From an uncultured Candidatus Saccharibacteria bacterium (lineage in GTDB: Bacteria; Patescibacteriota; Minisyncoccia; UBA6257; 2-01-FULL-56-20), in contig CAYWDX010000001.1 in the NCBI GenBank assembly GCA_964456235.1, positions 125,935 through 189,934 of the forward strand: a stretch of 64,000 nt of DNA, read 5' to 3'. The notes below the pieces were generated by a model. That model saw only the letters and a program-made list of their open reading frames with translations, did not search any database and was not told the origin of the DNA. This document shows positions 281 to 26,185 of the stretch, piece after piece (positions within the stretch are counted from its first letter, which is position 1; every line of letters begins with the position of its first letter). Both the position numbers and the translations under genes were made by a program.

Positions 281-793
281 ATGAAGCGCCGTCATTCTGA
301 TGCTGGTCGCTCGTATATCTGGGTAGCGGTCGTCATTGTCGCGGTCGGTGTCGTTATTTATTATTTCGCACCCAAATTGAGTGGCCCTTCGTCGGGACAG
401 TCCGGGAGTTCATTCAAGCCAATCATGGTACAGGGAACGATTCCGGCTTCAAGTTATGGCGCCGGTGCGGTCGGAACAAAAACGGCGACGAGCGTGACGC
501 TCCAAACGCCGGTTTCTTCTGCGACGCTCGGCACGATCGTCGGCATGGCGAAGATCAGTTCCGGCGCCGGCGTCAACTTCACGACCACGGTCATCGGCCT
601 CACGGACCCAAAAACTAAAAAATTGCTCGGCAGCACGCCGTTCGGCGCCGATGGGTCATATCAATTTTTCGTGGAGCCGGGTGAATATATCCTCTCGATG
701 GTGAGCGGCCCCTTAAAAAGCGGTTCGCTCCCCCAGCGCGTCTACGTTGGCGTTGGCGAAGTTTTGAATATTAACTTTTTCGTTCACCGCTAG
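281..793 (+). CDS. membrane-anchored protein with carboxypeptidase-regulatory-like (CarboxypepD_reg) beta-sandwich domain
   Basis: AAGGAT SD 4 nt before ATG; N-terminal TM helix (IWVAVVIVAVGVVIYYF); C-terminal ...GADGSYQFFVEPGEYILSMVS... pattern typical of CarboxypepD_reg. Confidence 0.55.
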   Translation: MKRRHSDAGRSYIWVAVVIVAVGVVIYYFAPKLSGPSSGQSGSSFKPIMVQGTIPASSYGAGAVGTKTATSVTLQTPVSSATLGTIVGMAKISSGAGVNFTTTVIGLTDPKTKKLLGSTPFGADGSYQFFVEPGEYILSMVSGPLKSGSLPQRVYVGVGEVLNINFFVHR

Positions 794-818
794 TTGGTTC
801 GCTACGCTAGCTTGCTCG

Positions 819-1439
819 CTAAAGGTGGAGCAGTTGAATTTGTCCGGAGCTCGCCGTGTTCACGTTGGTGCCGGCTGCATAATTATTTCCCAATTGCCCG
901 CCCGCTGCATTATTTCCCGAACCGCCCGACCAATCGCTCTGGCCGGCCACATCACTCACGCTGCGCGTGAGGAATAGTTGATAGGTCGTCGAACTGCCGG
1001 TCCCCGATGCGTTCGCGACCACCGTTACCTTGATCGTCGAGGGGTCGAACGTGTTGCCGCTCGCAACCGTCGTCGCGTTGCCGCTTCCGTCGCGATAGAT
1101 GGTGTCGAGATAAAAGAAGCGGGTGTAGGTCGTGCTATTCACCGTCACCGATTGCCCCGTCGAGGTTCCGACCACCACAAACACCGAACTGCTCGGCGTT
1201 AAGTAATAGAGGTTCGCCGAGGTCGTCGCGAGCGTGAGTATGGTATTCCAATTCCCTGGCGCCCACGCCTGCACGTTGCCGAGCAGCTCACTCGCCAGTG
1301 AAGATTTCGCCTGGACCTGGCCCACCTGGTTATTTTGCAAAATGGCGGGCCGGATCAGCGATGCGGCAACCGCAAGAAGCACGGTGCCGATCCCGACGGC
1401 GATGAGAACCTCGATGATCGATTGTCCCTTATGGCGCAT
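819..1439 (-). CDS. type IV pilin-like / pseudopilin (prepilin N-terminal cleavage-methylation domain)
   Basis: N-terminus MRHKGQSIIEVLIAVGIGTVLL = class III signal motif G|QSIIEVLIA with Glu at +5; Thr/Ser-rich body. Confidence 0.7.
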   Translation of the reverse strand: MRHKGQSIIEVLIAVGIGTVLLAVAASLIRPAILQNNQVGQVQAKSSLASELLGNVQAWAPGNWNTILTLATTSANLYYLTPSSSVFVVVGTSTGQSVTVNSTTYTRFFYLDTIYRDGSGNATTVASGNTFDPSTIKVTVVANASGTGSSTTYQLFLTRSVSDVAGQSDWSGGSGNNAAGGQLGNNYAAGTNVNTASSGQIQLLHL

Positions 1440-1444
1440 GGCAA

Positions 1445-2650
1445 TTAGAATTGGCTCGTCAGTTGGTAGATCGGAACGATGATCGAGAGAGCGATCACGG
1501 CAACAATAATGCCCATAGCAATGAGGAGTGCCGGCTCGAGGAGCGAAACCAGCGCCCGAATATTCCCATCAATGTTCGTTTCGTAAAAATCTGAAAGCGT
1601 CACGAGCACTTCGTCGAGATGGCCGGCGCGTTCGGAAATTGCAATGAGGTTCGTGACCGATTTCGGGAACACTTCCTCGCGCCGAAATGATTCGCCAATC
1701 GTGAGCCCCTTTGCGAGTCCGTCGTGGGCAACGCGCTCGAGCGCCGCGGCAAAATCCCGATTCCCCACGGTCTGCGATGCAATCATAATGCTGTCAACGA
1801 TCGGCATACCGGCCTTCATGAGCGAACTCATCGTCGCCGCCATGCGTTGGACCGCGAGGTCGACATAAATCTTTCTGATGACCGGCAATGCGATCAGCAA
1901 TCGGTTCCATAACCGCTTGCCGGTTTCGGTTTTGTTGATGACGAACAGGAAGGCGATGATGACCGCGAAGAAGATGCCATAGAGCCAGAGGATGTTCGAT
2001 CCGATAAAGAGGCCGACACTGAACACGACGCGCGAGAAGAGCGGCGGGGTGATCGCGCTGCCGTTGAAAACGTTCGCGAGCTTGGGCAGCGCAAAGGTGA
2101 CCAGGAAGGTAAGGATCGCGAGCGCCATAACCAAAACAACGATGGGGTAGACGAGGGCCGATTTCACTTTGGCGCGGAGCTCTGCTTCTCGCTGGAGAGA
2201 AACCGAAAGTTCCTCGAATGTTTTCTGCAAATTGCCCGACGCCTCCGCCGCTTTCACGAGGTTTACGAATGTCGGCGAAAATGTTTCAGGATGTTTGGCG
2301 AACGCCGCGTAAAACGGCTGGCCACGCGTGAGGTTATTGTGCACCTCAAGCAAAAAATCGCGCATCGCCGGCTGGTCGAAATCCGCGATCAAAATATTGA
2401 TGGCCGAGAGGAGATCGGTGCCCACCCGCAACATAAGCGCGAGATATTTCGCGAGGAACACCTTATCGCTCACGCTGATGCCGCCCCAAAACTTCACCGA
2501 CTTCAGGCCCTTTTCCTTGATAGGTTTCACCGACAATGGCCTCATATCCTTCGCCGAGAGATAGCGGAGGACTTCATTCAAGGTGCTCGCTTCGAAATCT
2601 TCCTCAACGGAATTTCCGGCGCGATCGACGGCCAAATAGTGAAACAGCAT
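1445..2650 (-). CDS. pilC: type IV pilus assembly platform protein PilC (GspF family)
   Basis: 401 aa, two T2SS_F-type repeats, three TM segments; directly downstream of pilB. Confidence 0.9.
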   Translation of the reverse strand: MLFHYLAVDRAGNSVEEDFEASTLNEVLRYLSAKDMRPLSVKPIKEKGLKSVKFWGGISVSDKVFLAKYLALMLRVGTDLLSAINILIADFDQPAMRDFLLEVHNNLTRGQPFYAAFAKHPETFSPTFVNLVKAAEASGNLQKTFEELSVSLQREAELRAKVKSALVYPIVVLVMALAILTFLVTFALPKLANVFNGSAITPPLFSRVVFSVGLFIGSNILWLYGIFFAVIIAFLFVINKTETGKRLWNRLLIALPVIRKIYVDLAVQRMAATMSSLMKAGMPIVDSIMIASQTVGNRDFAAALERVAHDGLAKGLTIGESFRREEVFPKSVTNLIAISERAGHLDEVLVTLSDFYETNIDGNIRALVSLLEPALLIAMGIIVAVIALSIIVPIYQLTSQF

Positions 2651-2675
2651 GTATCAATAGTATACCACGCGCCGA

Positions 2676-4397
2676 CTACTCCCGAATCACGCGCAGCACT
2701 TCTTCGAGCGTCGTTTGTGCGAGTCCCGCCTTCTCGAGACCGTCTTCGAACATCGTCTTCATGCCTTCTTTCCATGCCGTCGCGCGGAGTTCTTCCAAAC
2801 TGAAACGTTCAGCCATAATTTTTTCTTTGACGGCTTCGGTGATGCGGAAAATTTCGAAAATGCCGAGGCGGCCGCGATAGCCGGTCATGCCGCACGCGGA
2901 ACAACCCTTCCCGCGGAATTGCGTCTTCTGCACTTTGGCGCGCTCTGGCGGAATTTGCAGATCCTTCAACTGTTGCGCGACGGTTTTCATCGTGCTCTCA
3001 TCGACGTCGTACGAATAGATGCACGACTGGCAGATCTGGCGGACCAAGCGCTGTGCGACGACGAGGTTTAAAACCGAGACGACGAGGAACGGCGGCACTT
3101 TGAGATCGAAGAAGCGCGGGATCGAGGTCGGCGCGTCGTTCGTGTGGAGCGATGAAAGCAATAAGTGGCCCGTGAGCGCTGCCTGCACGCTGATTTCGGC
3201 GGTTTCGGCGTCTCGAATTTCGCCGACCATCACGATGTTCGGGTCCTGACGCAAAATCGCGCGCAGGCCCGAAGCGAAGGTGATCCCCGCCTGCGGGTTG
3301 ATTTGCATCTGGTTCACGTAGCGCATGTTGTATTCGATCGGGTCTTCAATCGTCGTCACGTTCACCTGCGGCTTGTTCAGAATATTCATGAGCGCGTAGA
3401 GCGTCGTCGTTTTACCGGAACCGGTTGGGCCGCAGGAAAGCACCATGCCGTAGGATTTTTTCAATTCTTCCGTAATGATCGCCGAATCGGTCTCGTTCAA
3501 ACCAAGTTCCTCGAGCGAAAGCGGTTTCTGCGTCGCTTCCAGCAAACGCATTTCAATTTTTTCACCGTAGAAGGTGGGGATCACCGATACGCGGATGTCG
3601 ATCGGCTGGTTCCCTACTTCGTAGCGGAAGCGCCCGTCCTGCGGCAAAAAGTGCTCGTCAATTTTCAAGCCGGCGAGCAATTTGAGGCGCGCGACGATCG
3701 CGGTGTGGACCGCTTTCGCGACGTCCATGATCTCGTACAAAATACCGTCGATGCGGTAGCGGATGAACATGGAATCTTCCAGGACTTCAATGTGGATGTC
3801 CGACGCGCGCGAAGCGAGGGCATACGAAAGGATGTTGTCCACGATGCCGACGATCGGCAACTCGCTCGCCGCCTCCTCCGGCGTCTTCGCGCGCGTCGCG
3901 AGGGACGCTTTGATGTTATCCTCGATCAGTTTTTTGAAATCCTGGCCCAATTCGTATCCGTAAATTGAGAAGCCGCGGTTCAAATCTTCCTGCGTCGCGA
4001 GCATGGGATGGATCTTCCCGTGCAAGCGCTCAGTGAGGAACGAAACCGTTTCCAAATCCGACGGGTCCACCATCGCCGCATCAAACGAGCCATCGGCCTC
4101 GCGCGCGAACACCACCACCTGGCGCTGGCGGGCGATGTCTTCCGGAAGGATCTTCACGACCGACGAATCAATTTTTTGCTTATCGAAATCTACCTGGGGC
4201 ACGCCAAGTTCGCGCGCGATCAGGCTTTGGATATAGTCCGCCGCCATGAAGCCGCCCGAAATAAGCACGTCGATAATGCTCTGATTTTTTCGCTCGGCGT
4301 CGACCGCAAGCTCGTCAAATTTTTCCGGAGAAAGAAGCCCTTCGGATGTCGCTAATTTTTTTATTTCAGAAACAGGCAGCGGGAGCCGCATACTCAT
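2676..4397 (-). CDS. pilB: type IV pilus assembly ATPase PilB (GspE family)
   Basis: Walker A GPTGSGKTTT, N-terminal GSPII_E_N-like domain, C-terminal tetracysteine CQSC...CSAC zinc motif. Confidence 0.92.
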   Translation of the reverse strand: MSMRLPLPVSEIKKLATSEGLLSPEKFDELAVDAERKNQSIIDVLISGGFMAADYIQSLIARELGVPQVDFDKQKIDSSVVKILPEDIARQRQVVVFAREADGSFDAAMVDPSDLETVSFLTERLHGKIHPMLATQEDLNRGFSIYGYELGQDFKKLIEDNIKASLATRAKTPEEAASELPIVGIVDNILSYALASRASDIHIEVLEDSMFIRYRIDGILYEIMDVAKAVHTAIVARLKLLAGLKIDEHFLPQDGRFRYEVGNQPIDIRVSVIPTFYGEKIEMRLLEATQKPLSLEELGLNETDSAIITEELKKSYGMVLSCGPTGSGKTTTLYALMNILNKPQVNVTTIEDPIEYNMRYVNQMQINPQAGITFASGLRAILRQDPNIVMVGEIRDAETAEISVQAALTGHLLLSSLHTNDAPTSIPRFFDLKVPPFLVVSVLNLVVAQRLVRQICQSCIYSYDVDESTMKTVAQQLKDLQIPPERAKVQKTQFRGKGCSACGMTGYRGRLGIFEIFRITEAVKEKIMAERFSLEELRATAWKEGMKTMFEDGLEKAGLAQTTLEEVLRVIRE

Positions 4398-5161: not shown

Positions 5162-5881
5162 TTAGGCCTGAATATTCATTGTGGATAACTCTTTTGGCGG
5201 ATCTGCTTCGAATTTCAATCGCCGCCCGTCGCGCGCGGTAAATTCAAGCGAAAGCGCATGAAGCGCGAGGCGCGATGCCGCATGAGATTTTCCGTACAGT
5301 CGATCCCCGATGACCGGGTGGCCGATGCTTGCGAGATGAACGCGGATTTGGTGGGTCCGTCCCGTCTTTGGAACCACTTCAAGTAAAGAATTTTCGCCAA
5401 TCTTTTTCACCACGCGATATTCGGTGACGGCCTCCTTCATCATTTTGTTTGAATGGATGCTGCGTTTCAACGTTCCGCTCCGAATTCCGATCGGCGCATC
5501 AATCACGCCGTGATGTTGTTTGGGCATACCCACAACCAACGCGAGATATTTCTTTTTGATCTCATGTTTTTGGAAAAGCGATTTGAAATATTCGAATGAG
5601 TCCTGGGTGCGCGCGACGAGCATCACACCCGAAGTGTCCTTGTCGAGCCGGTGCACAATCCCCGGCCGCAGCTCCGGGTCATCGCCCACTTTTTTCAGTT
5701 CCGGGTAACGTTTGACGAGCCAATCGACGAGCGTATCGTGCTTGCTGCTCGTACTGGGCGCGCCGGGATGTCCCGTGGCGTGCCGGGCGGCGTGCACCTG
5801 CCAGCCGGAGGGCTTATTGATGACAAGAAAATCCTTTTCTTCGTGGATGACCTCGGGGCCCACTAGAACGCCGGGTGCCAT
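5162..5881 (-). CDS. RluA-family 23S rRNA/tRNA pseudouridine synthase
   Basis: Catalytic motif HRLDKDTSGVMLVAR; 239 aa. Confidence 0.85.
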   Translation of the reverse strand: MAPGVLVGPEVIHEEKDFLVINKPSGWQVHAARHATGHPGAPSTSSKHDTLVDWLVKRYPELKKVGDDPELRPGIVHRLDKDTSGVMLVARTQDSFEYFKSLFQKHEIKKKYLALVVGMPKQHHGVIDAPIGIRSGTLKRSIHSNKMMKEAVTEYRVVKKIGENSLLEVVPKTGRTHQIRVHLASIGHPVIGDRLYGKSHAASRLALHALSLEFTARDGRRLKFEADPPKELSTMNIQA

Positions 5882-5989
5882 TGCGTGATCGAAAGGTCGC
5901 GGATAAAGAGCGCGAGACAGAATATAACCACGGCAACCACAACGAGCGTGACGAAGTATCGTTTCATCGGTTTATTTATCCTAGCATAT

Positions 5990-8944
5990 TCATTTTTTAC
6001 AGAGCTGGTTTAATTTTTTTCGCGTGAGCGTGCCGAAGATACCGGTTCCCGCGGTCAATTGCTGCGGAGTGAGAATGTCGGCGGCGAAAATTTCCTGGAA
6101 TGCGCCCACGGCGCGCGCCCTGGCGGGGCCAAAATATTCGGTTTCGTGCCCAGGCGACCCTGGCCCATCCGCCGCTACCTGCGTAAGAGAACTTTTGTTG
6201 AGTGTTTGTTGCAATAATTGCACGCTATTCCCCGTCGCGCCTTCCTGTAAATTTTTTCTGAATGCGGCGGCGCAGTTACTGCCGAGCTGAAGCGCTATCA
6301 ATTTTTGTTTGAGTGCGATGAGTTGCGATTTGAGATCTGGTGTTGGCGTTGCCGATCCCCGCGCCGCGGTCGTCGTACTCACGCCGAGCACTTTTCCATT
6401 TTCCTGGAGCGGCGGTGATTGATTGTTCTGATTGTGCGCGGGAGGATCTTGGGCGACCGAACTGCCACCGCTCGATCCACCGCTCGATGGAGCATTCACG
6501 GGCGGCGTTGATGTCGGCGACGAGGGCGTTGATGTTGGCGACGGTGGTGCCGGCGACACATTGCCGACCGGTTGAATCACGTCATCCATCGCACCGTCGC
6601 CATCATTATCCATCTTCAAAGCCAAGTCGCTCTGCGGATTTACAAAATGGAGCTGCGCCGTGGTGCTGGCGCTCGCGAGCGAGATCAACGGATACGTGAC
6701 CGTACTGCTTACCATGGCGCCGTCATATTCTTTTATCTGCATGCGGAATATTCCTGCGTCTGATGCGCGGCCCACGATGGTATAAAATTCCCCAGCCGGC
6801 AATGCTGGCACCAAGGCGAAAAGATTACTGCCGAAAACATCGTATTCAGCTCCTGGAATCGTAGCCATAAGGATTCCCGATGTCGCCATGCTAAGCTCGC
6901 GACCTTGGGAGTCGTAAATATCAAGCGTGACCGGGCCGTTGACGCTGACCTCGAAGTTTCGAGGGCGCAGACCCATGCAATCGGGAGGGTTCATGGAAAT
7001 TCCCCGAGGCAGCGTGGTCGTCCCCGTGCCCGCAAGAATGTCTTTAATAAATTCTAGCGGGATGGCGTCAGTTGCGAGCCCCATATGATCGGTCCCCGTT
7101 TGGTCGCCAAGGATGAAATACGTATTCGAACTATTTGCCAAATTCAGAGCGCTCAACTCCGGGATGGTGCCGTCACCAATATCGCGCCTTACTTCAACGA
7201 CACCGCCGTCATACAAATCAAACCCCACGATGGTCGGGCGGTTGCAGCCGATGATGTTGTATATACTCGAAACATGTATCGGCATCGCGTCCACGGCATC
7301 ATGAAAATTGTCGGCGAGATGCGAGAGCGGCGCATTCGGCCCCATCGAATGACCGTGGTCTAATATTTCATCTTTCCCATTTCTCAAATCATGAATGTAG
7401 TCGCCGGCGATAGTCGCGTAGCGAGCGCTCGGCAGCATTTCATAAATTGCCGGCATATTTTCGACAATCATTTTCGCTTCGCGCGGATTCAAGCCGAGAC
7501 CAAGCCAATTCATGCCAAGATCGTCGCCGTAGTTTAGCATTTGGTATGCGCGGGGCGTGCCCAGTTGCGGAACGCCGAGCAGGATAGCTTTGTCGATGTC
7601 CGTATGCGACGCAAGATATTCTTCGAGAAGCAGCCCGCCCATGCTGTGCGCGATCACGTTAACTTTTCCCGTCGGGGAAATCCTCACGGCGCGCGCAATC
7701 ACCGACGCAAGCGAATCCGTCGAACTCTCGATCGAGATGCGCCAGTCATAGGGCGCGGCGAAAAGATCGCGGCCTTCTGTATAGCCGTTTTGGACAAGCA
7801 TATCAATCAAATTTTGATACAACTTTTTCTCGAACGTGACGCCGAGAAAGCTCGTCGTAACGTTGCGCAGGATGTCGGTTGGGGAAAGTTGCCGATCGGC
7901 AAATGGCGTGCCGTCGGCATCGAGGGCTAAGAAATCTAAATAGCCATCATTTGATGAAGTGATCATCTGCGATGCACTCGGCCACGCTTCCCCGCCATCG
8001 GCGCGAACAAGACGCGAACCCATGATGCCGGGAATGATGACGACCGGCTCCCGAATCGCTTCTGGCAGCGTTGCGGTTGGTATATTGAAATCGATATTGC
8101 CTGGGCTCCGAAATTCAATCCAGGGCGAAGTGAACCCGCCGGTACGATCAACCGCTCGCGCGGCCCAATGATATGCCCCTGGCGCGAGGCCGGCCACCGT
8201 TCCCGACGCGACTTCACCGATGCCGACTGAATGAGTCGTGATCGTAGTGCTCCCCGATAATGGAACTGCGATCGGTTCGACTTCGATCTGCAAGGCGGCG
8301 GTGTCGGACGCGAAAAACATCTGCATGGTTGCGCCGAATGATACGGCACTCCCCGATGCCACGCCGTTCTCCGGAATCGTGGTCGTCGTGCCGAAAAAAT
8401 ATTGCGCGAGGTTTGTGAAGCCCACCGGGGATCCGACGCCGTCAGAATCACCGAAAACTAAATACGGATAAAATGCACCATCACTCCCCCGCGTGCCATA
8501 GACTTGCGCATCAAATGAACCGGAAGAAGAAAACTGAACGCTCACGCCGGTATCGCCCGCCCCGCCGTAATTAATATTCACGTCGTCGAACGTGTAGACC
8601 GCTTTTTGCCCAAGCTTCCCGGCCGCTTCCGCCGATGTTACGCAGTGTATATAAACCTGGTTTCCTCCGCGAAAGATGTTTACGAGCACGCCGGTATTGG
8701 GCGCGACCGGACAAAACGCGCTCACCCCTCGCTGCGAGTCATTTAAAATATTCATCTCCACTTGCAGATGGCTTACATGGCCCAGCGCATCGGCATATGC
8801 TGCGCCGAGCGGGCTCATGACAACGCTTGACGTTGCATCATCAAAATACTGGGCGTACAAATTCGCTGCATCCGCGTGATGCGTCCACAATAAAAACCAG
8901 GCGCCGGCCGCCACGCTGGCGACCGCAAAAAATTTCTTTTGCAT
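5990..8944 (-). CDS. secreted LCAT-like alpha/beta-hydrolase (lipase/acyltransferase) with C-terminal peptidoglycan-binding (PG_binding_1-like) domain
   Basis: Signal peptide MQKKFFAVASVAAGAWFLLWTHHADA; PGIMGSRL...AAPYDWR...NVIAHSMGGLL (GxSxG nucleophile elbow plus YDWR, LCAT/PDAT-like); Pro/Ser/Thr linker PSPTSTPSSPTSTPP; C-terminal ...NSVQLLQQTLN...DGPGSPGHETEYFGPARARAVGAFQ...TAGTGIFGTLT... PG-binding repeat pattern. Confidence 0.7.
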   Translation of the reverse strand: MQKKFFAVASVAAGAWFLLWTHHADAANLYAQYFDDATSSVVMSPLGAAYADALGHVSHLQVEMNILNDSQRGVSAFCPVAPNTGVLVNIFRGGNQVYIHCVTSAEAAGKLGQKAVYTFDDVNINYGGAGDTGVSVQFSSSGSFDAQVYGTRGSDGAFYPYLVFGDSDGVGSPVGFTNLAQYFFGTTTTIPENGVASGSAVSFGATMQMFFASDTAALQIEVEPIAVPLSGSTTITTHSVGIGEVASGTVAGLAPGAYHWAARAVDRTGGFTSPWIEFRSPGNIDFNIPTATLPEAIREPVVIIPGIMGSRLVRADGGEAWPSASQMITSSNDGYLDFLALDADGTPFADRQLSPTDILRNVTTSFLGVTFEKKLYQNLIDMLVQNGYTEGRDLFAAPYDWRISIESSTDSLASVIARAVRISPTGKVNVIAHSMGGLLLEEYLASHTDIDKAILLGVPQLGTPRAYQMLNYGDDLGMNWLGLGLNPREAKMIVENMPAIYEMLPSARYATIAGDYIHDLRNGKDEILDHGHSMGPNAPLSHLADNFHDAVDAMPIHVSSIYNIIGCNRPTIVGFDLYDGGVVEVRRDIGDGTIPELSALNLANSSNTYFILGDQTGTDHMGLATDAIPLEFIKDILAGTGTTTLPRGISMNPPDCMGLRPRNFEVSVNGPVTLDIYDSQGRELSMATSGILMATIPGAEYDVFGSNLFALVPALPAGEFYTIVGRASDAGIFRMQIKEYDGAMVSSTVTYPLISLASASTTAQLHFVNPQSDLALKMDNDGDGAMDDVIQPVGNVSPAPPSPTSTPSSPTSTPPVNAPSSGGSSGGSSVAQDPPAHNQNNQSPPLQENGKVLGVSTTTAARGSATPTPDLKSQLIALKQKLIALQLGSNCAAAFRKNLQEGATGNSVQLLQQTLNKSSLTQVAADGPGSPGHETEYFGPARARAVGAFQEIFAADILTPQQLTAGTGIFGTLTRKKLNQLCKK

Positions 8945-19253: not shown

Positions 19254-20870
19254 TTACTTGTGGATCACGAGCACGTCCCCCACCTGCACCGCGTGTTGCG
19301 AACTCAAGAGGACGCCGATTTCTTTTCCTTCTTCTGCTTGCGTGATTTCTGATTTCTTTTCGCGAAGGTTAAGGACGCGCGCCGTGCCGAGCGCCGTCTG
19401 GGCGACGTCTTCGTTCTTGCGGATGATGTTCGCCGTCGCCTTCTCGCGGAACATGCCCGCCGTAATTTTCCCGCCGACGAGTTGCTTGTCGAGTTTATCC
19501 TGGTTGAAGACGGCGAGAACCTCGAGCTTGCCCGTGACGGCCGGGCCGGCGCTTCCTTCCAAAAATTCTTGCACCGCTTTTTCGAGATCGTAGACAATCT
19601 TTGAGGTTATGATGGATACGCTCTGCGCTTCGGCGAGCGTCTGCGCGCCTTTCTCGACGCGGTTTTTGAAACCGACGATCGTGGCGCTGGTCGCGAGCGC
19701 GTGCTTCACGTCGCCGTCGGTGATGTCGCCGACGGATGAATCCACCATTTTCAATTCTTTACCGTCGGGATGTTTGATATTTCCGAGGACCCGCTCCAGC
19801 GCTTCAAGCGAACCGGCGTCGGATGCTTTAAGGACGAGGTTGAGCGTCTGGGGTTTTTTACCGCTACCGACATTGCCTGCGCCGTTTACATTGCCGGTCA
19901 CACTCGCGCCACCCGCGCCTGCTGCCGCCCCTTTATTATTAGCACCGGCCCCAGCCGTCTTTGTGTTTTGGGCAAGTCTTGATTCGGCATCTTTGCCGGT
20001 CGTGAACGTTTCACCAGCGCGCGGGAGTTCTTCGAGGCCGATGACTGTCGCGGGCGACGAGGCCGGTAGTTCAGCGATTGCCTCTCCTAAAAAGTTTTCG
20101 AGAATTTTTACTTTTCCGCGCACGATACTCCCTTCTGCGTTCCGGGAAACAATTTCATCGCCGCGCTTCACGACGCCATCTTTTATAATGACCGTCGCCT
20201 CAAGACCGCGCCGCGGATCCCGCCTCGCCTCCAAAACAAAACCCGATCCCGCGGCGCCTGGATCATACGTCAAGTGCTCCAAATCCGCCGCGAGCAACAC
20301 GAGGTCGAGTAATTCTTCCACGCCCGCGCCGGTTTTTGCAGAAATTCCCTGCGCACTCACCTGTCCGCCGTATCCCTCGAGCATGACGCCCGCATTCATC
20401 AAATCAACTTTTGCTTTTTCGAGCCCGGCGCCACCCGCCCCGACCGCGCCGCCTACTCCGCCATCGGCGAGCCGGTCAATTTTATTGAGCGCGACGATGA
20501 ACGGAGTTTTTGTTTCATCCAAAATCTGGATCGCTTCTTTGGTTTGCGGCTTCACGCCTTCGTCCGCGGCAACGACGAGGATCGCGAGATCGGCGATCGT
20601 CGCACCGCGCGAGCGCATGGCGGTGAACGCCTCGTGCCCGGGCGTGTCAATGAACGTAATTTTTCGCGCGGCGCCTTGGTGGCCCGCGGGCGCATGCTCG
20701 ATTTCATACGAACCGACCGCCTGCGTGATGCCGCCCGCTTCGCGCGCGGCGACATTCGCTTTGCGGATGTAGTCGAGGAGCGTCGTCTTGCCGTGATCGA
20801 CGTGGCCCATGACCACCACGATCGGCGCGCGTGTTTTTGTACCGCTTTTTGGTGCAGATTTGGCCTCCAT
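19254..20870 (-). CDS. infB: translation initiation factor IF-2 (short form, 538 aa, lacks long N-terminal region)
   Basis: G-domain VVVMGHVDHGKTTLLD...DTPGHEAF...NKIDR; Gly/Ala-rich internal linker. Confidence 0.93.
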   Translation of the reverse strand: MEAKSAPKSGTKTRAPIVVVMGHVDHGKTTLLDYIRKANVAAREAGGITQAVGSYEIEHAPAGHQGAARKITFIDTPGHEAFTAMRSRGATIADLAILVVAADEGVKPQTKEAIQILDETKTPFIVALNKIDRLADGGVGGAVGAGGAGLEKAKVDLMNAGVMLEGYGGQVSAQGISAKTGAGVEELLDLVLLAADLEHLTYDPGAAGSGFVLEARRDPRRGLEATVIIKDGVVKRGDEIVSRNAEGSIVRGKVKILENFLGEAIAELPASSPATVIGLEELPRAGETFTTGKDAESRLAQNTKTAGAGANNKGAAAGAGGASVTGNVNGAGNVGSGKKPQTLNLVLKASDAGSLEALERVLGNIKHPDGKELKMVDSSVGDITDGDVKHALATSATIVGFKNRVEKGAQTLAEAQSVSIITSKIVYDLEKAVQEFLEGSAGPAVTGKLEVLAVFNQDKLDKQLVGGKITAGMFREKATANIIRKNEDVAQTALGTARVLNLREKKSEITQAEEGKEIGVLLSSQHAVQVGDVLVIHK

Positions 20871-20952
20871 AACCCGTGAAATATATCAAGAAATCTTGTA
20901 CTTATCAACCTATTTTGCTATTGTTCTTTTGTTTGATGGTGAGGTGTTTTAT

Positions 20953-21042
20953 GGAGGCGTGGCTGAGCGGCCGAAAGCAACTTCCTGCTAAGAAGTTAAG
21001 GGAGCAATCCCTTCGAAGGTTCGAATCCTTCCGCCTCCGCCA
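20953..21042 (+). tRNA. tRNA-Ser (anticodon GCU), CCA encoded
   Basis: GGAGGCGTGGCTGAGCGGCCGAAAGCAACTTCCTGCTAAGAAGTTAAGGGAGCAATCCCTTCGAAGGTTCGAATCCTTCCGCCTCCGCCA; long variable arm; the only tRNA here with genomic CCA. Confidence 0.88.
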
Positions 21043-21104
21043 GATTACCAACTTTGAACCTAAGTAAAATAAGGGTATCTTGGATCAAAGATGTCATCAA
21101 AATT

Positions 21105-22163
21105 ATGAAAACTAAGTCCTTAAACAAAAATTTACATTCAGCAAGAACTGCTAAAACAGATGAGTTTTACACTCAACTTATTGATATTGAAAAAGAGGTA
21201 AAACACTATAAAGATCAATTTCGCGGTAAGGTTGTGTATTGCAACTGTGATGATCCGTTTGAAAGCAATTTTTTCCGATATTTTGTGCTCAATTTCAACA
21301 AGCTTGGATTAAAACGACTTATCACAACTAGTTACAAACCATCGCCTATCGCTAACACGCAATTAGGTTTATTCGGGAATGATAAGACTCTCGCAAAGAT
21401 AAAAGGTCGCCCTAAGGTAACTGCTAACAAATTTATCATTAATGAAGCGAAAGATATTGACGGTGATGGCGAATTCAACTTGAAAGACGTTGCTAATCAG
21501 TTAAAGGCAAACAAAAATAACGAGTGGACACCCCTTGAAGGAGATGGTGATTTTCGTAGTGAGGAATCCATAAATTTACTTAAACAATCCGATATTATTG
21601 TAACTAATCCACCATTTTCTTTATTCCGTGAATATCTAGCACAATTAATTGAATACAATAAAAAGTTTTTGATTCTCGGCGATCAAAATGCGGTTACTTA
21701 CAAAGAACCTTTTGGATACATTCAAAATAACAAGTTGTGGCTTGGTTATGATAACGGCGGTACAAAATGGTTTCAAGTTCCAATGGATTACGACATACCA
21801 ACCGAATCAAGAAAGAAAATTGAAAAAGGTATCAAATATTTTAGCATGGGAAGAATTTTGTGGTTTACAAATCTTGATACTACAAAACGACACGATAACT
21901 TAGTACTGTATAAAAAATATGCACCAAAGGAATTTCCTAAATATGACAACTTTGATGTTATAAATGTTGATAAAGTTTCTGACATTCCGATGAACTACGA
22001 CGGTGTTATGGGTGTTCCGATCACATTTGTTGATAAATATAATCCTAAACAATTTGAAATTTTAGGCATAGCAAATTCCGCAAGATGGATTGGTTATAAG
22101 TGCCTCACCCTCATTAAGGGTAGAAAAATATATAATCGCATTTTAATTAAAAGAAAAAAATAA
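21105..22163 (+). CDS. N6-adenine DNA methyltransferase, EcoRI-methylase-like family (NPPF motif)
   Basis: Motifs DEFYTQ, VVYCNCDDPFESNFF, GDGDFRS, IIVTNPPFSLFREYL, YDGVMGVPITFVDKYNPKQF; the ORF-track start 21054 is a TTG 12 nt after the tRNA, so the start was moved to the first ATG (MKTKSLN...). Confidence 0.75.
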   Translation: MKTKSLNKNLHSARTAKTDEFYTQLIDIEKEVKHYKDQFRGKVVYCNCDDPFESNFFRYFVLNFNKLGLKRLITTSYKPSPIANTQLGLFGNDKTLAKIKGRPKVTANKFIINEAKDIDGDGEFNLKDVANQLKANKNNEWTPLEGDGDFRSEESINLLKQSDIIVTNPPFSLFREYLAQLIEYNKKFLILGDQNAVTYKEPFGYIQNNKLWLGYDNGGTKWFQVPMDYDIPTESRKKIEKGIKYFSMGRILWFTNLDTTKRHDNLVLYKKYAPKEFPKYDNFDVINVDKVSDIPMNYDGVMGVPITFVDKYNPKQFEILGIANSARWIGYKCLTLIKGRKIYNRILIKRKK

Positions 22164-22164
22164 T

Positions 22165-23256
22165 ATGAAAATTAATCTACATAAAATTCAAATCCGTAAA
22201 GTTTTTGGTGGGTATAAGGATAGTGCCGAAGAGGGAGTCGTTGCTTATGGCGGTAAGCTGGATATTCGACCAAAATACCAGCGAGAATTCGTTTACAAAC
22301 CTGAACAACGCAATGCTGTTATAAATACTGTTCAAAATGAATTTCCACTTAACGTCATGTATTGGATAGAAAATAGTGCTGGTAAATATGAGTTGCTCGA
22401 TGGTCAACAGCGCACTTTAAGTATTTGTCAGTATGTTAATGGTGACTATTCAATTAATGACCGCTATTTCCATAATCTGACCAATGAAGAAAAAGATCAG
22501 ATTCTTGACTACGAACTCATGATCTATTTTTGTGATGGAACAGATAAGGAGCGTATTAAATGGTTCGAGGTGATTAATACGGCTGGTGAAAAACTTACAC
22601 CGCAAGAGTTGCTTAATGCCGTGTATACCGGATCATGGCTCTCAGATGCAAAATTAAAATTTAGTAAATCAGGCTGTGCCGCATATCTTTTGGCGAATGA
22701 CGATGGACAGTTAGTAAGTGGTTCTCCAATTCGGCAGGAATATCTTGAAACTGCATTATCTTGGATCAATAATGGCGATGTTGCTGGCTATATGGCAAAG
22801 CATCAGCACGACAAAAATGCTGAAAAGTTATGGGAATATTTCCAAAATGTAATTGCGTGGGTACGAAAAAATTTCACAAATTATCGTAAAGAAATGGCAA
22901 GTGTGAATTGGGGCGAGCTATACAACGAATTCAAAGATAAAAAGCTAACTGCTACCAAAATTGAAGCAGAGATTAGCAAATTAATGCAGGATGAGGACGT
23001 TACCAAAAAGTCGGGTATCTATCCGTATGTTTTGATGAGGCAAGAAAGGTATCTTTCGATTCGTGCCTTCACAGACAAAATGAAACGTGAAGCATTTGAG
23101 AGGCAAAATGGTAAGTGTTCATTTTGTAAGAAAAAATTTGATATTTCCGAAATGGAAGCCGATCATATTTCACCTTGGCACGAAGGTGGAAAAACCATAG
23201 CTCAAAATTGCCAAATGTTGTGCAAGCAGGACAATCGCACTAAATCTGGAAAATAA
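22165..23256 (+). CDS. DUF262 (ParB/Srx-like) + HNH endonuclease two-domain protein (GmrSD-like architecture)
   Basis: N-terminal ELLDGQQRTLSI (DGQQR hallmark of DUF262); C-terminal CSFCKK...ADHISPWHEGGKTIAQNCQMLCKQDNRTK (CxxC...DHIxP...GG...N...LCxxxN HNH/His-Me finger); start is 1 nt after the MTase stop. Confidence 0.75.
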   Translation: MKINLHKIQIRKVFGGYKDSAEEGVVAYGGKLDIRPKYQREFVYKPEQRNAVINTVQNEFPLNVMYWIENSAGKYELLDGQQRTLSICQYVNGDYSINDRYFHNLTNEEKDQILDYELMIYFCDGTDKERIKWFEVINTAGEKLTPQELLNAVYTGSWLSDAKLKFSKSGCAAYLLANDDGQLVSGSPIRQEYLETALSWINNGDVAGYMAKHQHDKNAEKLWEYFQNVIAWVRKNFTNYRKEMASVNWGELYNEFKDKKLTATKIEAEISKLMQDEDVTKKSGIYPYVLMRQERYLSIRAFTDKMKREAFERQNGKCSFCKKKFDISEMEADHISPWHEGGKTIAQNCQMLCKQDNRTKSGK

Positions 23257-23263
23257 AAACTTT

Positions 23264-24370
23264 TTAGGCTGGTTGAACAAATTTAACTCGAGGTCTTAAG
23301 TGGGAAAATTTTCTCCAAGCATCTTTTACACCCATTTCATGTAGTTCGTGTGCAACCCTTCCAGCAACTATAGCCGGAGATACATTAATCTCCTTTGCGA
23401 ACTTGATAATACGATCATCAGCAGAAACTCTGTCACCAGCTTTAAACTCATTAAACTTTGCATCAGAAATCAAAGTTTTACGTGCAAATTCATCGGCTTC
23501 TTTTTCTTTATCCGCTAATTCACTGTTTTCTCTTTTCTCAAACTCTATAAACTGGTCCTTTTTACCATGTTTAAGTAAATGGCCAATTTCATGAAAGAAA
23601 GTGAACCAAAAACGATCTATGTGAGCACCCCTCAAACTTACTTGTATAAGTGCTTTATCAGCTGAAAGCCATCTTGTAGCACCATCAACAAAAGTATTTG
23701 AAAAATAAGGCACAAAAGCAACAGCAACGCCAGATTCTGAACAAATCTCTTGTATGCCTTTTTCAATACCAGTAACATCTTTTTTGGTTAATGCCCGCAA
23801 ACTTTCAATTGAGTTTGTCAGCTTATCTTTATCAAAAGATTTAGTCTGTATTTTGTTTCCCTCGATCTCACCACATCTAAGCCATGCGGCAAGACATTCA
23901 TGCGACAAATTACTCTGTTTAGATTGTCTAAATGCAACCTGATGAGTTTTTTGGACAAATCCTAAAGAGCTTACACCAAAGAAGTTTAAGAGATTAAACA
24001 CCTTTTCTTTTGAATCTTTTGATTTTGGTACATAATTCCATTTTGCCAACTCTTTATAGCAATCAAATTTATCTAAGGAAGGCAACTCCTTTTCTAGCTT
24101 TTTATCTCTTTCAATTCTTGCCAATGTTTCCTGATAGCTTCTTTCAAGGCTATTCCAAAACACAGGAGACATGCCGAATACAGCAGAAAGCTTTAACGCT
24201 GTTTCCGGGGTAATAGGGTTCTTTCCCTGAATAATCTCATTGATTGTCTTTGGAGTAAGATCTGTTCTTGCGGCAAGATCAGTCTGGGTCATGTTTACGT
24301 TATCCAATAACTCCTTAAGAGTATTACCTGGATGAATTGCGATATTTGGATTGAAATCGTTTGTAGCCAT
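23264..24370 (-). CDS. higA: HigA-like HTH (XRE) antitoxin fused to ImmA/IrrE (COG2856) zinc-metallopeptidase domain
   Basis: N-terminus IHPGNTLKELLDNVNMTQTDLAARTDLTPKTINEIIQGKNPITPETALKLSAVFGMSPVFW (HigA HTH); C-terminal HEIGHLLKH (HExxH); start taken at ATG (MATNDF...) 4 nt after the higB stop rather than the upstream TTG. Confidence 0.75.
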   Translation of the reverse strand: MATNDFNPNIAIHPGNTLKELLDNVNMTQTDLAARTDLTPKTINEIIQGKNPITPETALKLSAVFGMSPVFWNSLERSYQETLARIERDKKLEKELPSLDKFDCYKELAKWNYVPKSKDSKEKVFNLLNFFGVSSLGFVQKTHQVAFRQSKQSNLSHECLAAWLRCGEIEGNKIQTKSFDKDKLTNSIESLRALTKKDVTGIEKGIQEICSESGVAVAFVPYFSNTFVDGATRWLSADKALIQVSLRGAHIDRFWFTFFHEIGHLLKHGKKDQFIEFEKRENSELADKEKEADEFARKTLISDAKFNEFKAGDRVSADDRIIKFAKEINVSPAIVAGRVAHELHEMGVKDAWRKFSHLRPRVKFVQPA

Positions 24371-24374
24371 ATGT

Positions 24375-24689
24375 TTAGTGGTAATCAATTATTTCAATAA
24401 TCATGACCTTGCTTATCGACTTTAGATCTTGAGGATCTCCATTTAAATAGGTGATGATTATTCGATACGGATGTTTGATATCTAAAGCATAACATTTTTT
24501 CAGCTTACCCTTTAACGGGTGCAGTCTGATTTGAGGAAGCTTCGATATATCAGACAGACTCTCCGCAGACAATAACTCATTAATCCTCTGGACTATCAAT
24601 TCTGCCTGAAGATGGCCGTATCTCCTCTTTAATAAGGCACCATCTTCGCAGGTTTTCTTGAGTTTTTTGTCTTTAAAGGAGAGTTCCAT
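24375..24689 (-). CDS. higB: HigB-family (RelE/ParE superfamily) mRNA interferase toxin
   Basis: MELSFKDKKLKK...RLHPLKGKLKK...YLNGD...IIDYH matches the HigB pattern (xSFKxKxLKK / LHPLKG / NGD / DYH C-terminus). Confidence 0.8.
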   Translation of the reverse strand: MELSFKDKKLKKTCEDGALLKRRYGHLQAELIVQRINELLSAESLSDISKLPQIRLHPLKGKLKKCYALDIKHPYRIIITYLNGDPQDLKSISKVMIIEIIDYH

Positions 24690-24792
24690 TCTAATGCTAT
24701 AGGACGGTTATTAGAGTAAATCATTACTACCCGAGTGTAGCAAAACTCACTAAATATGTCAAATGTGGATAACCCAATAGGTTAATGATATT

Positions 24793-24820
24793 TTGACATT
24801 GTGCAGGAAGAGCATATAAT
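24793..24820 (+). promoter_or_regulatory. near-consensus sigma70-type promoter (TTGACA-16-TATAAT)
   Basis: ttgaca at 24793-24798, 16-nt spacer, tataat at 24815-24820; lies in the higB / DUF2188-ORF divergent intergenic region. Confidence 0.55.
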
Positions 24821-24861
24821 TGAAAACGTTTGAGGCTCGACAAACATTTTATCAAAAATAA

Positions 24862-25110
24862 TTTTGCAAACGCCAAATAGCCACAAAACAATACAAGCAA
24901 GTTTGGGTCAGTCCAATCGGTGATGATTGGAAAGTGAAAAGCGCCGGGGCTGATCGAGCTGCCGCAATCGTAGACACGAAAGCGGAAGCGGTGGAGCTAG
25001 CACGTGAGATCGCGATCAATAAGAAAGCAGAACTTATTGTTCAAAACGCAGATGGTGAGATTGGGTGGAGGAATTCGTATGGTCACGATTCTTTCCCTCC
25101 TCGGGGATAG
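24862..25110 (+). CDS. DUF2188-like small protein ORF lacking a canonical start codon (possible pseudogene or non-AUG start)
   Basis: Frame translates ...QYKQVWVSPIGDDWKVKSAGADRAAAIVDTKAEAVELAREIAINKKAELIVQNADGEIGWRNSYGHDSFPPRG*, matching the DUF2188 pattern (VWVSP..G.W.VK..G..RA......A.A...AR.IA......EL..QG.DG.I...NSYG.DP.PP); no in-frame ATG/GTG/TTG covers the domain, only an internal GTG that would give 58 aa. Confidence 0.4.
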   Translation, partial: FCKRQIATKQYKQVWVSPIGDDWKVKSAGADRAAAIVDTKAEAVELAREIAINKKAELIVQNADGEIGWRNSYGHDSFPPRG

Positions 25111-25411
25111 TACAAAGAAAACTGACCAACGGCCAGTTTTCTCCGATTCTTATTCAAAGTCGTCCCGCAGTGGGCGACTTTGTTATTCTAACATGAACGT
25201 AAATTTATATTATCCACTTTTTAGTTGATCGAATAATCAACAACATTGTTTCCTTTATCCGATTTTGGCTTGGGAACTTCAAACCATTCAGGATGGACTT
25301 TGTAGATAGACCTTAATTTCTGTATACTTTTATCAAGATCCTCGAATTTGAGCCGTGTTTCTGGTTCAAAGTTGTGGCAATCGTCCCCGCAGCTGTTACA
25401 CTTACAACCAA

Positions 25412-26185
25412 CTACCGCAGAAGCAGGAACGCGAAAATGATTGCGAATATTATCCGGTAAACGCCGAATGAGGTGAACTTGTGGTTTTTGATGTAGTCCA
25501 GGAGAAATTTCACCGCGAAATAAGCGGTAACAAAGGCAACCAGAAACCCTGCGGCGAGCATGCCATAGCCGCCGCTCGCAATTCCGGCGTGGCTTTTATA
25601 AAGATCGTAGCCCGATGCCGCGATCATCGTAGGCACCGCGAGCAGGAATGAAAACTCGACGATCGCGCGGCGGCGCACGCCGAGAAGCATGCCGCCGACA
25701 ATCGTTGCCGCCGCGCGGGAGACGCCGGGTATGACGGCGAGGGACTGCGCGCACCCAATCAAGAACGCTTGTCGGTATGAAAGAGAGCGCGCTTCGCTCA
25801 CGTGAAATTCCTGCTCGCGATGGAACGCCTCGAACAAGATGAGGACCGCGCCGCCGAGGAGGAGCATCCATAAAATCAATATCGTATCTTCAAAGAAAAA
25901 ACCTTTAATGATTTTGTAGAGAACGAAGCCGATCACGGCGGTCGGGACGAAAGCGACAATGATGCGCTTGTTGGTCTCCCAGTCCGCGAGGAATCGTTTA
26001 GCGTAGAGTGCGACGACCGCAAGGATCGCGCCCAGTTGAATAAAAATTTCGAAGGTGGTCAGGAAAACCGTTTGCGGCAGTTTGAAAAGGTCTGCGATTA
26101 AGACTTGGTGTGCTGTCGACGATACCGGAAGAAACTCGGTCAAGCCCTCGATCGCGCCCAAGATAATGGAATGAAAAAGGGTCAT
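25412..26185 (-). CDS. uppP: undecaprenyl-diphosphatase UppP (BacA)
   Basis: GAIEGLTEFLPVSSTAHQVL signature; 8 predicted TM segments. Confidence 0.9.
   Translation of the reverse strand: MTLFHSIILGAIEGLTEFLPVSSTAHQVLIADLFKLPQTVFLTTFEIFIQLGAILAVVALYAKRFLADWETNKRIIVAFVPTAVIGFVLYKIIKGFFFEDTILILWMLLLGGAVLILFEAFHREQEFHVSEARSLSYRQAFLIGCAQSLAVIPGVSRAAATIVGGMLLGVRRRAIVEFSFLLAVPTMIAASGYDLYKSHAGIASGGYGMLAAGFLVAFVTAYFAVKFLLDYIKNHKFTSFGVYRIIFAIIFAFLLLR

Follow-up and report, generated by a model that had tools for sequence, protein, structure and literature searches.

A HigB-like toxin gene and a HigA-peptidase fusion gene in a Patescibacteria genome: a probable two-gene sister of PD-lambda-2

What a metallopeptidase does when it is fused to an antitoxin of the HigA type has been a question since 2009, and in PD-lambda-2, a phage defence system built from the same kinds of proteins, the toxicity is puzzlingly reversed. 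The same question is raised by a pair of genes at positions 23264-24689 of a 64,000-nucleotide (nt) stretch from an uncultured Candidatus Saccharibacteria bacterium (NCBI GenBank assembly GCA_964456235.1, contig CAYWDX010000001.1, positions 125,935 to 189,934 of the forward strand); this whole stretch is referred to below as the window. The first gene encodes a HigB-like toxin, and the second encodes a HigA-type helix-turn-helix (HTH) domain fused to a peptidase of the M78 (ImmA/IrrE) family. The two-gene module of HigB and HigA-peptidase is real, and its identity and family assignment are highly probable. The statement that we favour as a whole, namely that this is a higBA-type module and a two-gene sister of PD-lambda-2 in which the peptidase serves as the switch, has in our estimate a probability of about 0.55. 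The setting of the module is best explained by a small, horizontally acquired defence islet beside a tRNA-Ser gene of this Patescibacteria genome. The GyrB protein of the host is 84% identical to its counterparts in metagenome-assembled genomes of Minisyncoccia/Paceibacterota.

The toxin and the HigA-type fusion protein

The genes and protein parts that make up the module are the following:

24375-24689, minus strand: higB-like toxin gene, 104 amino acids (aa), stop codon counted in the coordinates (open reading frame (ORF), Pfam PF05015)
23264-24370, minus strand: HigA-HTH / M78 peptidase fusion gene, 368 aa, stop codon counted in the coordinates (ORF, Pfam, TIGR02607, PADLOC PD-Lambda-2_B)
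24131-24340, minus strand: HigA-type Xre HTH domain (residues 11-80)
23357-23617, minus strand: M78 (ImmA/IrrE) peptidase core (residues 252-338; PF06114)
23926-23940, minus strand: A-[FY]-R-x-S loop, a candidate hinge or cleavage site proposed from sequence and model (region of residues 144-148, with A146-F147-R148; about 23921-23941 for residues 144-150)

The higB stop codon (TAA, 24377-24375) is followed by a 4-nt gap (24371-24374) and then by the ATG of the fusion gene at 24370. An alternative in-frame TTG start at 24388 would make a fusion protein of 374 aa; the ATG is taken as the start because 33 of 33 homologs (alignment A1) begin at this MATND-type position. The original prediction, made from the letters of this stretch, had placed a 104-aa HigB-family ORF 4 nt ahead of a second ORF, with which both the coordinates and the motifs agree (MELSFKDKKLKK...RLHPLKGK...YLNGD...IIDYH, in this order, with DYH as the C-terminus). 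The second ORF is likewise real and ends at 23264, and its product has 368 aa, one fewer than the 369 aa that had been given. Both genes lie on the minus strand, which had gone unmentioned.

The toxin matches the HigB-like toxin family (Pfam PF05015) with an E value of 7.5e-9 and 36.4 bits (cut-off 27), and it also matches TIGR02385 (RelE_StbE), there under the curated cut-off. A phmmer search of PDB sequences with the toxin returned Proteus vulgaris HigB chains only; in the alignment, LHPLKG lies over LHPLKG and the arginine of YRI over the arginine of WRI. The AlphaFold2 (AF2) model of the toxin, built from 24 homologs, has a predicted local distance difference test (pLDDT) score of 93.6 and a RelE-like microbial ribonuclease (RNase) fold. 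When this model was compared with the PDB by Foldseek, the top 12 matches were all P. vulgaris HigB, with template modelling (TM) scores of ~0.77 and a maximum of 0.78.

The catalytic residues of P. vulgaris HigB are H54, R73, D90, Y91 and H92 (Schureck et al., PMC5027501). All five are kept in the toxin of the window as H57, R76 and D102-Y103-H104, the last three of which form its exact C-terminus, as they do in HigB. The two toxins differ by an insertion of 11-12 residues ahead of the last strand in the protein described here. Among the partner toxins of the fusion family (n = 80), H57 is found in 79 and R76 in 78, while a C-terminal D/N-Y/T/F-H is found in ~60 and a KHY variant in 12; selection thus maintains the RNase site throughout the family. 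Judged by these residues, the HigB enzyme looks active.

The fusion protein matches HTH_3 at its N-terminus (E 4e-14), the NCBIfam HigA model TIGR02607 with 62.9 bits (cut-off 47.7) and Pfam PF06114 (Peptidase_M78) with an E value of 6.8e-10 and 39.2 bits (cut-off 22). Its AF2 model was built from 34 homologs and has a pLDDT of 85.8. The first 100 residues of the model superpose on HigA and VapI structures, with HigA structures as the top matches, and Foldseek matched the C-terminal half to PprI/IrrE (8sln_A, 3dti) and CapP (7t5t). The N-terminal HigA-type XRE HTH domain and the C-terminal HExxH domain of the ImmA/IrrE type (HEIGHLLKH, residues 260-268), both of which had been read from the sequence, are thus borne out by the family models, and the predicted structure has an intact HExxH fold. 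The classical HigB-HigA pair of P. vulgaris (Rts1) resembles the module in having the toxin gene first, the HigB fold, the five catalytic residues and the HigA-type HTH. Classical HigA, however, is a small single-domain protein of ~100 aa without an enzymatic domain, whereas the antitoxin of the window has ~270 more residues that carry the M78 peptidase; at 368 aa it is a fused variant of HigA.

The peptidase site is strictly conserved. Within HEIGH (residues 260-264, codons 23579-23593), H260 was found in 228 of 228 diverse relatives, E261 in 226 and H264 in 228. E289, found in 227 of the 228, lies within the E..A[DN].FA..L[IL] motif typical of COG2856 and is a candidate third zinc ligand. 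With the metal site conserved to this degree, the M78 peptidase looks active. The last helices of the model stop at residue 354 of 368, and the chain ends ~25 residues past the peptidase domain. The fusion protein is therefore ImmA-like in size and has no counterpart to the additional C-terminal domain that IrrE and CapP possess.

The A-[FY]-R-x-S loop sits in the sole stretch of low confidence that the model has between the HigA part and the peptidase, with a pLDDT below 50 at residues 144-146. Its arginine (R148) is kept in 214 of the 228 relatives and an aromatic F or Y at position 147 in 207. A cysteine-switch loop like that of CapP was also considered and was rejected: the column of Cys104 consists of 83% gaps across the family, and none of the conserved columns in alignment A1 holds a cysteine.

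The gene pair across bacteria and its studied relatives

The architecture is not new, and the two-gene form of HigB and HigA-M78 is both known and abundant. At E <= 1e-3, a word-indexed search with the fusion protein gave 4,508 proteins; almost all have ~360 aa and consist of HTH_3 and Peptidase_M78, and "HigA family addiction module antitoxin" is a common name among them. An exhaustive search of 50%-identity representatives gave 1,193 clusters at E <= 1e-30, and at least 589 confirmed fusion stretches are present in contigs of one genome per species. The phyla among the matches listed include Patescibacteria, Omnitrophota, Spirochaetota, Cyanobacteriota, Pseudomonadota, Bacillota, Actinomycetota and others. 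Near-full-length relatives of the fusion protein can also be found on 42 plasmids and 4 phages.

To survey the gene pair, 80 loci were fetched, 79 of which had upstream sequence to assess. A HigB-like ORF lies directly upstream and on the same strand in 77 of these 79, in many phyla, and the gap between the two genes is mostly -32 to +30 nt. In RefSeq, the pair is labelled "killer suppression protein" and "HigA family addiction module antitoxin". No conserved co-oriented third gene was found downstream in the 80 loci, where the downstream ORFs are mostly singletons with two pairs only; the gene 3' of the fusion is often absent or convergent. Downstream genes, when present, frequently encode a type I restriction-modification (RM) subunit, a methyltransferase or a patatin-, SIR2- or HNH-type protein. 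We also observed a Spirochaetia contig (L009) in which one HigB-like ORF occurs twice, inverted, near both ends (477-824, plus strand; 7198-7545, minus strand), which an inverted duplication or faulty assembly could explain.

A two-gene homolog that differs from PD-lambda-2 was found in Escherichia coli while E. coli genomes were being searched with a homolog from a Pantoea plasmid. Of 5,426 complete E. coli genomes, 235 encode a 360-aa fusion homolog whose sole annotation is "XRE family transcriptional regulator". Overlapping the start of its gene by 4 nt is a 108-aa HigB-like ORF that lacks an annotation and matches the family profile with an E value of 2.5e-13. The locus that we fetched is:

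NZ_CP006632, 4816654-4824036: two-gene locus of E. coli PCN033 (L085), with the module at 2548-3953 of this stretch (4819201-4820606 of the accession)

Its neighbours are genes for an aGPT-Pplase3/ADDT-type thymidine-hypermodification enzyme and for thymidylate-synthase-like, MazG-like and dGTPase-family proteins.

The closest studied relative is PD-lambda-2 of E. coli ECOR42, which consists of a HigB-like protein, a HigA-like HTH-peptidase fusion and a third protein resembling a P4-phage antitoxin (Vassallo et al., 2022, PMC9519451). PD-lambda-2 provides phage defence by abortive infection, for which the third gene is required (PMC9519451). Unexpectedly, its fusion protein was toxic alone, and the toxicity was rescued by the HigB-like protein (PMC9519451). 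The module in the window shares with it a HigB-like gene followed by a HigA-like Xre HTH-ImmA/IrrE fusion, amid defence genes; PD-lambda-2 has three genes, whereas the module has two. Our comparison was made through PADLOC models and not with the PD-lambda-2 sequences themselves. On this basis, the best PADLOC match of the fusion protein is PD-Lambda-2_B (PDLC03982), with an E value of 2.6e-38 and residues 21-345 aligned to positions 67-379 of the 402-position profile. Among the other PADLOC models the best are RmrA (E 5.8e-11) and CapP (E 1.3e-9), the matches to capP and capH being weak. No mechanistic study later than the PD-lambda-2 work was found in our literature search.

Fused proteins of this kind were described earlier from genome comparisons. 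COG2856 and Xre domains are fused in over half of cases, and many of the fusions lie in operons with RelE or PIN toxins, for which an analogy to LexA-like autoproteases was drawn (Makarova, Wolf and Koonin, 2009, PMC2701414). The module has exactly this architecture, a fused HTH and zinc peptidase beside a toxin of the RelE superfamily. The 2009 class was computational and rested on small counts, e.g., 15-22 RelE links (PMC2701414), whereas the module belongs to a HigB/HigA-type subfamily that is now very large. An ImmA-domain protein has since been presented as the hub antitoxin of RosmerTA, with HTH cleavage proposed as a regulatory step (Ernits et al., 2023, PMC10440598). The original prediction had proposed that a signal-activated protease inactivates its own antitoxin and thereby releases HigB. 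Its domain reading stands, and the HigB-type toxin has its catalytic residues, but the idea of a self-cleaving fusion had already been published, and the proposed mechanism is partly at odds with what was found for PD-lambda-2.

RosmerTA (RmrT/RmrA; Millman et al., 2022; PMC10440598) resembles the module in its antitoxin with an N-terminal HTH and an ImmA-type peptidase, its varied toxins and its role in phage defence. It differs in the toxin, as RmrT of Gordonia phage Kita depolarises membranes (PMC10440598) and is not a HigB RNase. Thirteen RmrA models match the fusion protein, weakly and in the peptidase part only, the best of them at residues 229-350. In ImmA/ImmR, IrrE(PprI)/DdrO and CapP/CapH, an M78 peptidase cuts an Xre-family repressor on a DNA-damage signal. 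These systems share with the module an M78 peptidase with HExxH and a glutamate, and the model of the fusion protein matches PprI, IrrE and CapP structures; however, their protease and repressor are separate proteins and their output is transcription, whereas here both parts lie in one chain and the proposed output is toxin release.

The islet and its promoters

The module lies within a low-GC islet, whose other features are the following:

21043-25360: low-GC islet, starting at the 3' end of tRNA-Ser(gct) (20953-21042); limits from guanine-plus-cytosine (GC) content and homology
21054-22163, plus strand: EcoRI-type adenine methyltransferase (Pfam EcoRI_methylase, E 1e-129; PADLOC MTase_II, E 6e-117)
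22165-23256, plus strand: DUF262/GmrSD_N and HNH endonuclease (Pfam GmrSD_N and HNH; PADLOC REase_II, E 7e-128)
24934-25110, plus strand: DUF2188 / PDC-S16 candidate-defence gene (PF09954, E 5.6e-14; PADLOC PDC-S16, E 2.5e-21)
24734-24762, minus strand: sigma-70-like promoter upstream of higB (TTGACA, 17 nt, TACACT, with TG; 10/12 consensus match)
24793-24820, plus strand: divergent promoter-like site facing the DUF2188 gene (TTGACA, 16 nt, TATAAT; 12/12 consensus match)
24770-24784: palindrome TAACC-N5-GGTTA, candidate operator, between the two divergent -35 boxes
24715-24728: palindrome AGTAA-TGAT-TTACT, second candidate operator, just downstream of the higB -10 box

The GC content of the 4.3-kb islet is 0.32-0.41, against 0.52-0.62 in the flanks. 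The methyltransferase and endonuclease genes form a type II RM pair (21054-23256) directly after the tRNA-Ser gene and convergent with the fusion gene; they are context and stand outside the module. Together with the PDC-S16 gene, they are the defence-type neighbours of the module here. The DUF2188 gene is divergent from higB and accompanies the module in its closest relatives only (L086 and L087, in the same arrangement); it was not found in the 80 surveyed genome loci. The ATG of this gene in L086 is ATA in the window (gene 24880-25110), and the listed ORF therefore starts at an internal GTG and is ~19 N-terminal residues short. The ATA could be a non-canonical start or a sign of a decaying gene.

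L086 is a contig of a metagenome-assembled genome, and 2,097 nt of the islet (23264-25360), comprising the DUF2188-higB-fusion block, are 88.5% identical to it (5331-7426). The right boundary of the islet at 25360 is inferred from the end of this homology. A 55-nt left end (21022-21076), which consists of the 3' end of tRNA-Ser and 34 nt beyond it, is also common to L086 (8467-8520), where it is a partial copy of a tRNA end ~170 nt from tRNA-Ser(gga). The cargo between the two shared pieces differs, being the RM pair in the window and a Zn-ribbon protein with a 198-aa protein of unknown function in L086. A search of 20800-25600 found the tRNA 3' end only once, and no integrase was found at the islet. 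These sequence comparisons suggest a small mobile islet whose cargo can be exchanged. At its right end (25220-25360, minus strand), the shared block holds the 3' part of a small ORF, which has 86 aa in L086 and no family match. This ORF has no start codon in the window; the boundary of the islet, just short of the end of BacA/UppP (25412-26185), therefore seems to cut through a gene.

The promoter upstream of higB is proposed from its consensus match, and both of its hexamers are conserved in three related loci. Among four related loci, the TAACC/GGTTA arms of the first palindrome are invariant with a variable spacer, and the second palindrome is invariant throughout. A perfect 8-nt inverted repeat (ATGTCAAA/TTTGACAT, 24756-24799), centred on TAACC-N5-GGTTA, has the divergent -35 boxes as its arms. 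A further inverted repeat, GTTTG-N8-CAAAC, can be found just past the promoter that faces the DUF2188 gene, with all but one base the same in the four related loci.

How the module may be switched

In the reading that we favour, HigB would be a ribosome-dependent endonuclease of messenger RNA. The HigA-like N-terminus of the fusion protein would form a complex with it and keep it inactive, and would also repress its own operon through the palindromes around the promoter. The peptidase would act as the switch and, in response to a signal that accompanies infection or DNA damage, would cut the fusion protein either in cis or, within a dimer, in trans; the flexible and conserved A-F-R loop is a plausible site. 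Alternatively, the peptidase might cut an associated factor instead of the fusion protein. Cleavage would free HigB and derepress the operon, and translation would stop in the infected cell, resulting in abortive infection. ImmA/ImmR, IrrE/DdrO and CapP/CapH give precedent for the cutting of Xre repressors by an M78 peptidase. Self-cleavage as the trigger, a step suggested by analogy, is tentative, and we would sooner doubt it than rely on it.

Several points weigh against this reading. PD-lambda-2 is the only experimentally studied relative, and its polarity, taken as an analogy, is opposite to the simple one assumed here. Neither the toxin of the window nor any of 79 partner toxins matched PADLOC PD-Lambda-2_A at E <= 0.01. 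No PD-lambda-2C-like third gene was found at the locus: the 3' neighbour is the convergent restriction endonuclease gene, and the DUF2188 protein matches PDC-S16, not PD-Lambda-2_C. The module is therefore a two-gene sister of PD-lambda-2 and not a member as defined, and with neither an A-type nor a C component the transfer of function from PD-lambda-2 is indirect. The groove of CapP that binds single-stranded DNA (ssDNA) has been placed between the domains of CapP, and the fusion protein has no such extra C-terminal domain, so an ssDNA signal cannot simply be assumed. The candidate operators are mere palindromes, compared among four closely related sequences.

The main rival is a reversed or mutual polarity, which we consider unlikely. 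The fusion protein would then be the effector that inhibits growth, for example as a protease with host proteins as substrates or as a DNA binder that represses too strongly, and the HigB-like protein would be its inhibitor; in a variant of the same reading, both proteins would be effectors that check each other until their complex is disturbed. This would agree with the toxicity of the PD-lambda-2 fusion and its rescue by the HigB-like protein (PMC9519451), given that homology between the fusion protein of the window and PD-Lambda-2_B extends over almost the whole protein. It would also agree with a published list in which COG2856 is the toxin predicted for Xre-COG2856 pairs (Makarova, 2009, PMC2701414), and the peptidase site is conserved as strictly as would be expected of an effector. 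However, RNase catalytic residues that are kept in nearly all of the 80 toxins are hard to explain for a mere inhibitor. The toxins also fail the PD-Lambda-2_A model, so the PD-lambda-2 result may not transfer, and a DNA-binding protease can be toxic as an artefact of its over-expression.

A pair under mutual restraint, in which RNase and protease inhibit each other in one complex until a phage cue leads to a self-cut at A-[FY]-R-x-S (residues 146-150), is a more speculative possibility that we hold to be improbable. If it were true, a single LexA-like self-processing event would both free HigB and derepress the operon. It would also reconcile the intact RNase site with the toxic PD-lambda-2 fusion and give a role to a domain that has been unexplained since 2009.

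Plain addiction or stabilisation is less likely than a reversed polarity. Post-segregational killing would keep the islet, and the peptidase would only set the turnover of the antitoxin, with no sensing of phage. The module does lie within an apparently mobile low-GC islet, the plasmids noted above carry near-full-length relatives, and classical higBA was first found as a system for plasmid maintenance. Against this, the neighbours are repeatedly defence genes, at this locus and elsewhere, and the closest studied relative defends against phage. An extra enzymatic domain that is strictly conserved over more than 1,000 clusters also speaks for a regulated function and against mere instability.

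A module that acts purely as a transcriptional switch, like ImmR/ImmA or CapH/CapP but in one chain, in which the HTH represses the DUF2188/PDC-S16 gene or other defence genes, the peptidase relieves this repression and HigB is accessory, would suit the divergent promoters with symmetric -35 boxes around a central palindrome, the weak PADLOC capP and capH matches and the regulation of defence operons by CapP/CapH, but it is very unlikely, as HigB is the sole partner conserved across phyla, none of the 80 genome loci has DUF2188, the downstream genes are unconserved and often convergent, and the HTH is specifically of the HigA type.

Our preferred reading remains that of a HigB toxin restrained by a HigA-type protein with the fused peptidase as the switch. 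For its study, the E. coli two-gene copy is a more tractable test bed than the Patescibacteria metagenome locus. Such loci are called simply "HigA antitoxin" or "XRE regulator" in annotations, and the toxin gene is sometimes overlooked. The survey shows that the two-gene form makes up a very large family present in many phyla, that both of its active sites are conserved, and that it tends to sit among defence genes.

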